A stretch of 64,000 nt of DNA from Escherichia coli (GCF_050320075.1 NZ_CP190018.1), one strand, 5' to 3'; counted from the first letter of the stretch, positions 44,374 through 47,300 are shown. The notes: a model not told the origin generated them from the letters alone. Program-made: numbers and translations.

Positions 44374-47300
44374 TTACGCCTTCTCGATGTTGACTAAGAA
44401 CGCTTTATATTCCGGCGTTTGCGAGTTTGCATCACCGACATTCGGCGTCAGAGTGTTAGCGATATAACCTTTACGCGCGACACCCTCAAAGCCCCAGTGG
44501 ATTGGAATACCCACCGTTTCAACCTGCTGACCGTTTACATTCAGCGGTTTCAGACGGCGCGTTACCACCGCCACCGCGCGGATAAATCCACGCTTGCTTG
44601 AGACAGTGACACGATCGCCATTATTAATGCCTTTCGCCGCCGCCAGCGTTTCGCTGATTTCCACAAACTGTTCCGGCTGAGCAATTGCGTTGAGCAACGC
44701 GTGCTTGGTCCAGGTGTGGAAGTGCTCGGTCAGACGATAGGTCGTACCCACATACGGGAACTGCTCTTTTTTACCCATCCGCAGCGCGTCTTGTTCATAC
44801 AGACGAACAACCGGGTTAGACACCACATTCGGATGCAGCGGGTTAGTGCCCAGCGGCGTTTCGATTGGCTCGTAGTGTTCCGGGAACGGACCTTCCGCCA
44901 TTTTGTTGATGGCAAACAGGCGTCCCATCCCTTCCGGCTGCATGATAAACGGTCCGGTTGGTGTACCTGGCGCGGCATTGCCGAAGTCCGGAATATCGTT
45001 ACCCGTCCACTTGCTGCCGTTCCACTGGATCAGCATCCGTTTCGGATCCCACGGTTTACCGTTGATATCCGCCGAAGCACGGTTGTAGAGTACGCGACGG
45101 TTGAGCGGCCACGCCCAGGCCCATCCCAGCGTATTCCCCAGACCGGACGGGTCGGAGTTATCGCGGTTAGCCATCTGGTTGCCCTGCTCTGTCCAGCTAC
45201 CGGTGTAGATCCAGCAAGAAGATGCGGTTGTACCGTCATCACGCAGATGCGCAAAGCTACTCAGCAACTGCCCTTTCTTCGCAATCAGCACACCATTAGC
45301 ATCATAGAGATCTTCCAGCGCATAGCCGTTGTTCTCTTTAGCTACTTCGTCAGATTGCGGTTCGTGCGGCTGCTTGTAGTTCCAGCTCATCTTCATCAGC
45401 GGTTCTACGCCTTTACCACCTTCGGCCTGGTACAGCTCGCGCAGATGATGGTAGATACCCGCCAGAATTTCGCCGTCGTTACGCGCTTCGCCCGGCGCGT
45501 CCTGACCTTTCCAGTGCCACTGCAACCAGCGACCGGAGTTAGCAATAGAACCATCTTCCTCAGCAAAGCAGGTCGAAGGCAGACGGAATACTTCAGTCTG
45601 AATAGACGCAGGATCGACATCGTTCGACTCGCCGTGGTTCTGCCAGAAGGTAGAAGTTTCAGTCACCAGCGGATCGATAACCACCATATACTTCAGCTTG
45701 CTCAGGCAGCTTACCACTTTGTTTTTGTCCGGGAAGGACGCAACCGGGTTAAAGCCCTGGCAGAAATAACCGGTGACTTTGCCTTCATCCATCATGTTGA
45801 AATACTTGATGACGTCGTAGGTCTGGTCCCACTTGGGCAGCCAGTCGTAGCCCCAGTTGTTCTCTTTCTGCGCAGCATCGCCGTAGAAAGATTTCATCAG
45901 GCTAACGAAGAACTTCGGATAGTTGCTCCAGTAGTTCACCTGATCAGCCAGCGTCGCTTTCGGCGTGTTCGCTTCCAGATACGACTGCAAATCAACCTGT
46001 TTTTCTGACGGCAGCGTCAGATAACCCGGCAGGCTGGTAGAGAGCAGGCCTAAGTCGGTCAGCCCCTGAATGTTGGAGTGACCACGCAATGCGTTCACGC
46101 CGCCACCGGCCATACCCATGTTACCGAGCAGTAACTGGATCATCGCCATAGTACGGATGTTCTGCGCACCCACGGTGTGCTGCGTCCAGCCCAGCGCGTA
46201 AAGGAAGGTGGTTGTGCGATCCGGTGCGCTGGTGGAGGCCAGCACTTCACACACTTTCAGGAAGTCGGCTTTTGGCGTACCACAGATGTTTTCTACTACG
46301 TCCGGCGTGTAGCGGGAAACGTGCTCTTTCAGCAAGTTCCACACACAGCGCGGATGAGTCAGTGTTTCATCGCGTTTCGCATAGCCGTTTTCATCGAACT
46401 GATAGTTCCAGGACGATTTATCGTATTGACGTTTTTCAGCGTCGTAGCCGCTGAACAGACCGTCTTCGAAAGCAAAATCATCACGCACCAGCAGACTGGC
46501 GTTGGTGTAATGCTTAACGTATTCGGCGTTGATTTTGTTGTTTTCGATCAGGTAGCGCAAAACGCCAGACAGGAACGTAATGTCCGTACCGGAACGAATA
46601 GGTGCGTAAATATCCGCTACAGAAGCGGTACGCGTAAAACGGGGATCGACAACGATCAAGGTTGCATCGTTGTTGTTTTTCGCTTCCATCGCCCAGCGGA
46701 AACCGACGGGATGCGCTTCAGCAGCGTTACCGCCCATCACCATTACGACGTTAGCGTTTTTGATATCCACCCAGTGGTTGGTCATCGCACCGCGACCAAA
46801 TGTTGGAGCAAGACTTGCTACCGTTGGTCCGTGTCAGACGCGCGCCTGGTTGTCTACCGCCAGCATCCCGAGGGAGCGGGCAAATTTCTGGGTCAGCATC
46901 CCGGTTTCGTTGCTGGCACCGGAGGCACACAGCATACCGGTAGAAAGCCAACGGTTTACCGTTACGCCCTGCTCGTTCTTTTCAATAAAGTTAGCGTCAC
47001 GGTCAGCTTTCATCAGCTTCGCAATACGGGAGAATGCTTCATCCCAGCTAATGCGCTGCCATTTGTCAGAACCTGGCGCACGATATTCCGGGTAGCGCAG
47101 ACGGTTTTCGCTGTTGACGTAATCCAGCAAACCGGCCCCTTTCGGGCATAACGCACCACGGCTTACCGGATGATCCGGGTCACCTTCAATGTGATAAATC
47201 GCTTCTCTGGCGTTTTTCGCGCCATCACCCAGGCTATACATCAATAGCCCGCAACCTACGGAACAGTATGTGCAGGTGTTACGGATCTCTTTAGCGCGTA

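Follow-up and report, generated by a model that had tools for sequence, protein, structure and literature searches.

The fdnG gene and its operon

The window, i.e. the whole stretch of 64,000 nucleotides of Escherichia coli DNA analysed here (GCF_050320075.1 NZ_CP190018.1), carries on its minus strand the gene fdnG, which belongs to the classical trio of E. coli selenoprotein genes and is followed by the other genes of its operon. The reading frame of fdnG contains an in-frame UGA. The features are as follows:

44374..47421, minus strand: fdnG, formate dehydrogenase-N alpha subunit, 1015 residues plus stop, with one UGA read through
46834..46836, minus strand: UGA at codon 196, decoded as selenocysteine (Sec196); the fdnG frame has no other internal stop, and this codon aligns to X196 of 1kqf_A
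43477..44361, minus strand: fdnH, Fe-S beta subunit, the next gene of the operon (TIGR01582, 482 bits, cut-off 335; annotated as fdnH in the matching genomes)
42831..43484, minus strand: fdnI, cytochrome b gamma subunit, the last gene of the operon (NF007558, Fdh-N gamma, 486 bits, cut-off 339)

Translation of the 1016-codon frame from 47421 to 44374 reveals codon 196 as the single internal stop; the 819 codons on its 3' side run without a further stop and align fully to 1KQF. The minus-strand mRNA around UGA196 reads GCG CGC GUC UGA CAC GGA CCA ACG GUA GCA AGU CUU GCU CCA ACA UUU GGU CGC GGU. A mechanical list of ORFs reports two minus-strand ORFs in the same frame, 46834..47421 (195 aa) and 44374..46785 (803 aa), the latter opening at its first ATG, which is Met213 of the complete protein. 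An earlier interpretation made from the DNA alone (hereafter the sequence-only reading) described fdnG as split into two ORFs at the in-frame TGA at 46834..46836, and both the ORF list and the translation agree with this description.

With TIGR01553, the NCBIfam equivalog for FdnG, the complete protein gives 1624 bits (cut-off 814). It aligns end to end with chain A of PDB entry 1KQF, which bears the name "formate dehydrogenase, nitrate-inducible, major subunit" in the database record and has the non-standard residue X at position 196, and it also aligns with several PDB chains named 'selenocysteine-containing' formate dehydrogenase alpha. The K-12 FdnG (1KQF) and the FdnG of the present strain differ by E127D, L342F and S666A, all of them distant from the recoding site; at the site itself the element in the window is the same as the known E. 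coli fdnG Sec196/SECIS (Rfam RF01989, PDB 1KQF), with no difference. At the nucleotide level, many E. coli chromosomes carry an annotated fdnG that agrees with the 3048-nt frame at every position (100% identity). Of 5426 complete E. coli genomes, 5425 have a match over at least 80% of this frame, with the identity over the whole gene being only 95-99% in most E. coli records.

The paralog fdoG belongs to a separate operon (fdoGHI). The gamma subunit encoded in the window passes the Fdh-N model and fails the Fdh-O gamma model, against which it scores 270 bits, under the cut-off of 341. As judged by comparison of sequences, the gene is fdnG, both from its equivalog score and from its order with fdnH and an fdnI of the Fdh-N type.

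In the RefSeq/PGAP records that match the window, fdnG is annotated as one CDS of 3048 nt that bears neither a pseudogene flag nor a join, and fdoG and fdhF of MG1655 are likewise annotated as intact CDS. The sequence-only reading expected that automated annotation would call fdnG a pseudogene. RefSeq presents the gene as a single intact CDS, and therefore this expectation is wrong for the RefSeq/PGAP pipeline; it holds only for plain ORF finders that work from stop to stop. We also inspected the surroundings of UGA196 for other signals. Pfam gives no match for the antisense ORFs 46177..47151 and 46670..47095 or for a small out-of-frame ORF on the sense strand, 46751..46951. The search around UGA196 yielded no promoter-like site and a single terminator-like site, fewer than in shuffles, and the plus strand yields no Rfam match at the site.

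The SECIS hairpin downstream of UGA196

The UGA is accompanied on its 3' side by a hairpin, whose parts are listed below with nucleotides counted from the U of the UGA:

46781..46839, minus strand: SECIS element, Rfam SECIS_3 (RF01989), matched over the full 59 positions of the model with 84.3 bits (gathering score 63), a high score that is partly by construction, as the seed of the model probably includes enterobacterial fdnG and fdoG
46805..46822, minus strand: upper stem-loop, nt 15-32, with the fold ((.(((((...))))))) in MFE folds
46820..46820, minus strand: bulged U17, at the identical index in fdhF and invariant in 73/73 sequences among the matches listed
46812..46814, minus strand: apical loop G23 U24 C25, closed by A22-U26; fdhF has G23 and U24 at identical indices
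46824..46831, minus strand: nt 6-13, the 5' side of the lower helix as paired in the E. coli MFE structure, pair probabilities 0.97-0.99
46791..46799, minus strand: nt 38-46, the 3' side of the lower helix as paired in the E. coli MFE structure, pair probabilities 0.97-0.99

The match to SECIS_3 is untruncated, with E = 1.4e-18 in the scan of the whole window, where it is one of two Rfam matches in total, and E = 4.9e-21 in a local scan. The model of the fdhF type, SECIS_2 (RF01988), reaches 28.8 bits on the window (gathering score 70). The interval 46780..46845 delimited in the sequence-only reading encloses the SECIS_3 match at 46781..46839, and the stem that was placed there 3' of the UGA, at the distance expected of a bacterial SECIS, is borne out: it corresponds to ggtagcaagtcttgctcc at 46822..46805, nt 15-32 from the U of the UGA. 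Folding and comparison with the consensus return a hairpin with the conserved apical loop, in which U17, G23 and U24 are placed as in fdhF.

The upper stem consists of the pairs G15-C32, G16-C31, A18-U30, G19-C29, C20-G28, A21-U27 and A22-U26, and U17 is unpaired in every fold computed. Between the UGA and G15, the first base of the upper hairpin, there are 11 nt (CACGGACCAAC). In the E. coli SECIS the upper stem-loop lies 11 nt from the UGA, and U17 and G23 are contacts of SelB (PMC8659212). The fdhF SECIS of MG1655 has in common with that of fdnG the UGA followed by CAC GGN CC, an upper hairpin that begins 11 nt after the UGA, the identical indices of U17, G23 and U24, and the SelB-dependent mechanism (PMC8659212). 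The two elements differ in the sequences of their stems, in the loop, which has 4 nt (GGUC) in fdhF versus a closing A-U pair and GUC in fdnG, and in the length of the upper element (17 nt in fdhF versus 18 nt in fdnG). By analogy with fdhF, the upper stem-loop of fdnG would represent the minimal SelB-binding hairpin. As for the lower helix, the Rfam consensus pairs nt 4-10 with nt 40-46, unlike the MFE structure of the E. coli sequence, and the Rfam register fits this sequence less well than the MFE register does.

The fdnG element also agrees with the general model of the bacterial SECIS (Zhang and Gladyshev). According to PMC13188914, this model has a loop of 3-9 nt, an upper stem of 4-16 bp, an apical loop located 16-37 nt from the UGA and an MFE <= -7.5 kcal/mol, and the loop has G in its first two positions, then G or U, in the pattern N1-G-[G/U]-N-N2. 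The fdnG element lies within all four limits, with a loop of 3 nt, or 5 nt when A22-U26 is unpaired, an upper stem of 7 bp that has one bulge, 19 nt from the UGA to the loop and -13.8 kcal/mol for nt 1-47, and its loop A22 G23 U24 C25 U26 fits the pattern. The general consensus is permissive: approximately 12% of synonymous recodings of the fdnG stretch pass a crude version of it, and therefore passing it is, taken alone, weak evidence.

An invariant block shared by fdnG and fdoG

The hairpin is contained in a longer segment that is the same in the two paralogs:

46769..46839, minus strand: 71-nt invariant block, codons -1 to +21, the longest run identical between fdnG and fdoG

The nucleotide identity between fdnG of the window and fdoG of MG1655 is 74%. 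The 71-nt identical run begins 3 nt before the UGA, and the next longest run has 35 nt; the selenocysteine codon of fdoG is also codon 196. The identity of fdoG over the whole element means that no covariation can be drawn from the paralog, and we used it as evidence of conservation. Beyond E. coli, the 71 nt are 100% identical in approximately 19 Enterobacterales loci among the matches listed, from genera that include Citrobacter, Enterobacter, Klebsiella, Yersinia and Photorhabdus, while the 300-nt flanks are 70-87% identical. The codon profile is near-invariant from codon -1 to codon +21, and synonymous sites on either side vary freely; within the block, third positions with four-fold degeneracy do not vary among genera, despite the divergence of the flanking synonymous sites. 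In fdhF, by comparison, synonymous variation is seen beyond codons 4-9, unlike the fixation of fdnG and fdoG over all codons from -1 to +21. Within the species, 5425 of 5426 E. coli genomes carry the block together with its TGA, and the median number of places per genome is two, corresponding to fdnG and fdoG. When only the best copy in each record is considered, the identity is 99% or higher for 5432 of the 5433 E. coli records.

Folding energy and covariation

By its folding energy the hairpin is not set apart from shuffled sequences, with z = -1.6 at best, for the 47-nt hairpin, and a range from -0.2 to -1.6 over the four sub-windows of the hairpin that were compared. Among 3000 synonymous recodings of codons 1-15, 35% fold at least as stably as the native sequence. 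The native stability is unexceptional with respect to both shuffles and recodings, and therefore the argument of the sequence-only reading, that a stem can form at the expected distance, is weak when it stands alone.

Homologues were collected by matching species-representative genomes to a degenerate DNA pattern that encodes A-R-V-UGA-H-G-P-[T/S]-V, which gave at least 120 loci. The pattern required the TGA and prescribed parts of codons -3 to +5; Cys-containing homologues are outside this sample. All of the at least 120 loci listed are formate dehydrogenase alpha genes with an in-frame TGA followed by a long ORF, at least 108 of them of the FdnG type and at least 12 of the FdhF type. Among the matches listed, 73 FdnG-type sequences from other species are distinct, and their alignment has no gaps.

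In these 73 sequences among the matches listed, 97.3% of the cells of the upper helix are paired, and four of its seven pairs show changes on both sides. The pair A21-U27 (column 27/33), which is formed by two synonymous third positions, occurs as AU in 44 sequences, CG in 23 and GC in 3, with 3 sequences unpaired; A18-U30 occurs as GC in 54, AU in 9 and CG in 4. Exchanges among AU, GC and CG are found at two upper-helix pairs built from synonymous third positions, and G19-C29 changes to U-G along with Ala-to-Ser and Ala-to-Gly changes in the protein. In the loop, U24 is invariant and G23 is conserved in at least 90% of the 73 FdnG-type sequences among the matches listed. The covariation score of the upper helix was reached by none of 500 shuffles, and in a slid control, with the 3' partners moved by 1-3 columns, 28-58% were paired. 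The lower helix, whose register is ambiguous and which has next to no covariation in its favour, is approximately 84% paired across species, with changes on both sides at one pair in the E. coli register and at none in the Rfam register. Taken together, the covariance-model score, the covariation of the upper helix and the suppression of synonymous change mark the element, at the level of sequence comparison, as being beyond chance.

Alternative explanations

If the TGA were a true nonsense mutation, fdnG would be a pseudogene with a truncated product of 195 residues. UGA is indeed a stop codon in genetic code 11, and a plain ORF finder breaks fdnG at this position, but neither the annotation of fdnG as an intact CDS in RefSeq nor the 819 uninterrupted codons after the TGA, which align over their full length to 1KQF, would be expected of such a gene. 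The 71-nt block with the TGA is missing from one genome only among the 5426 of E. coli, its best copy remains at least 99% identical in all records but one (5432/5433), and a TGA at the homologous codon is followed by an intact ORF of approximately 820 codons in at least 108 FdnG-type loci from many phyla, where the contig allows. With both the TGA and the downstream frame conserved, the pseudogene reading is effectively refuted, and we assign it practically no probability. A subtler alternative accepts the recoding as real and regards the hairpin as a by-product of conserved codons, maintained by constraint on the protein or by gene conversion between fdnG and fdoG. The region does encode a highly conserved active-site motif (RVUHGPTVASLAPTFGRGAMTNHW), gene conversion could yield the identity of fdnG and fdoG over the block, and the ordinary MFE (z = -1.6), the 35% of recodings that fold as well and the 12% that pass the crude SECIS filter agree with such an explanation. 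It is contradicted by the third positions: four-fold sites stay the same from genus to genus although the synonymous sites in the flanks have diverged freely, and third-position partners co-vary, with only 3 sequences unpaired at column 27/33 against AU 44, CG 23 and GC 3. In addition, pairing falls to 28-58% in the slid controls, and U17, G23 and U24 stand exactly at the determinant positions defined by experiment in fdhF (PMC8659212). We consider a coincidental hairpin very improbable, and it is, in our judgement, nearly certain that UGA196, with the hairpin downstream of it, is where selenocysteine recoding takes place in E. coli fdnG.

A further possibility, which we regard as unlikely, is that the element of Enterobacterales is longer than the classical SECIS. 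In this case nt 38-46, freed from the 5' strand of the lower helix by the unwinding ribosome, would take nt 50-59 as their new partner. The invariant block extends approximately 20 nt beyond the base of the hairpin, as this proposal would have it, and when nt 1-14 are removed, the alternative hairpin (nt 38-59) forms with pair probabilities of approximately 0.93. Among the 16 possible GCN x ACN combinations, none favours the alternative hairpin more than the native GCG with ACC, and in one homologous locus (L116) the changes C45U and G51C, as read from the sequence, convert the bulged alternative hairpin into a perfect one of 9 bp. Yet its folding is not exceptional (z = -1.3; 21 of 200 shuffles fold as well), nothing comparable exists in fdhF, and the alternative hairpin is broken in three loci (L050, L100 and L102) and is not kept outside Enterobacterales. 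The 'extra' conservation past codon 15 amounts to two four-fold sites only, and the two-fold codons in this part are preferred codons, which are conserved elsewhere in the gene as well. The 7-mer GACCAAC at nt 8-14 is repeated at nt 54-60; by our own estimate, a 7-mer repeat within 70 nt occurs by chance in approximately one case in ten. We give the extended strand-swap element a low probability; if it were true, the swap would keep the SelB-binding hairpin correctly presented.

Selenocysteine machinery and proposed mechanism

The sequence-only reading called for the sel genes to be present in the genome. Neither sel genes nor tRNA genes are found within the 64-kb window. With the MG1655 copies as queries, complete E. 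coli genomes were found to contain selC in 5424 of 5426 cases, selAB in 5425 of 5426 and selD in 5425 of 5426; the genes are near-universal in the species. Judging from these species-wide frequencies, the sel genes are very likely present in the source genome.

Berg et al. (1991), as cited in PMC13188914, reported that the opal UGA in fdnG encodes selenocysteine. In the classical SECIS reading, which we prefer, the fdnG mRNA just 3' of UGA196 would fold into the SECIS hairpin and the UGA would be read as selenocysteine, not as a stop. The C-terminal domains of SelB would, by analogy, bind the upper stem-loop through the bulged U17 and the loop nucleotides G23 and U24, with SelB carrying GTP and Sec-tRNA(Sec), the product of selC, presumably charged via SelA and SelD. 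The approaching ribosome would then unwind the lower helix, and the tethered SelB complex would hand Sec-tRNA(Sec) to UGA196 in the A site. In the active site of formate dehydrogenase-N, the resulting Sec196 would serve as the molybdenum ligand. These steps are drawn from established knowledge of E. coli (PMC13188914, PMC8659212, Berg et al. 1991 as cited), and it is the literature on the E. coli system that suggests SelB binding and selenium insertion at UGA196 in the present gene.

Implications

The Sec196 codon and the SECIS of fdnG are real and already known in every respect; they represent a textbook case. Recognition of Sec196 guards fdnG against being miscalled as two ORFs or as a pseudogene. 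For bacterial SECIS elements located within coding regions, the stability of the hairpin is by itself a poor test, and it is covariation and the conservation of synonymous sites that discriminate.

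The lower helix and the sequence beyond the SECIS hairpin

46791..46833, minus strand: region of the SECIS lower helix, in which two registers were compared
46769..46790, minus strand: invariant stretch of about 20 nt past the hairpin base (codons 16-21)

Counting nucleotides from the U of the selenocysteine UGA of fdnG, the minimum free energy fold of the E. coli sequence forms the lower helix of the SECIS hairpin by pairing nt 6-13 with nt 38-46. The Rfam SECIS_3 consensus pairs nt 4-10 with nt 40-46, but in the E. coli sequence this register sets A against C and A against G. 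Only one pair is altered on both sides in the E. coli register and none in the Rfam register; covariation gives neither of them real support.

In fdnG and its paralog fdoG across Enterobacterales, the nucleotide invariance extends beyond the base of the hairpin by about 20 nt on the 3' side. The heptamer GACCAAC has one copy at nt 8-14 and a second at nt 54-60, and this repeat makes possible an alternative hairpin over nt 38-59, which is predicted with weak statistics.

Insertion sequences and the dosC-osmC segment

37464..38236: IS1 copy adjoining truncated dosC (junction at about 37471)
48151..48925: IS1 copy interrupting yddG
about 47653..48156 and 48927..49310: two yddG fragments, either side of IS1
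15483..16254: third IS1 copy, with a counterpart in YZLc1-3
42644..42767, minus strand: STnc490, an Hfq-binding sRNA (Rfam match, 146 bits)
42176..42634, minus strand: IS200/IS605 tnpA ORF, annotated as transposase in matching genomes

Comparison with one strain, YZLc1-3 (NZ_CP123240.1), which is elsewhere 100% identical, revealed that the window lacks about 10.5 kb comprising, in order, the remainder of dosC, dosP, ddpXABCDF and osmC. The absence of this segment looks like an IS1-associated deletion.

The IS1 insertion in yddG, also present in YZLc1-3, is on the upstream side of fdnG, about 730 bp from its start codon; the fdnG-yddG intergenic region is uninterrupted. The YZLc1-3 counterpart of the third copy disrupts a fimbrial usher gene. 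On the other side of the operon, STnc490 and the tnpA ORF immediately downstream of it, both on the minus strand, constitute an insertion flanked by fdnI and yddM.

A candidate Fnr site upstream of fdnG

47486..47499, minus strand: Fnr-like half-site pair TTGATttcgCGCAA, read from the sequence

Upstream of fdnG, at a distance of about 70 nt from its ATG, we found TTGATttcgCGCAA, which we take to resemble an Fnr half-site pair (consensus TTGAT-N4-ATCAA) and regard as a candidate site only. A simple scan around it found no sigma-70 consensus promoter, which fits an activator-dependent anaerobic promoter at fdnG.
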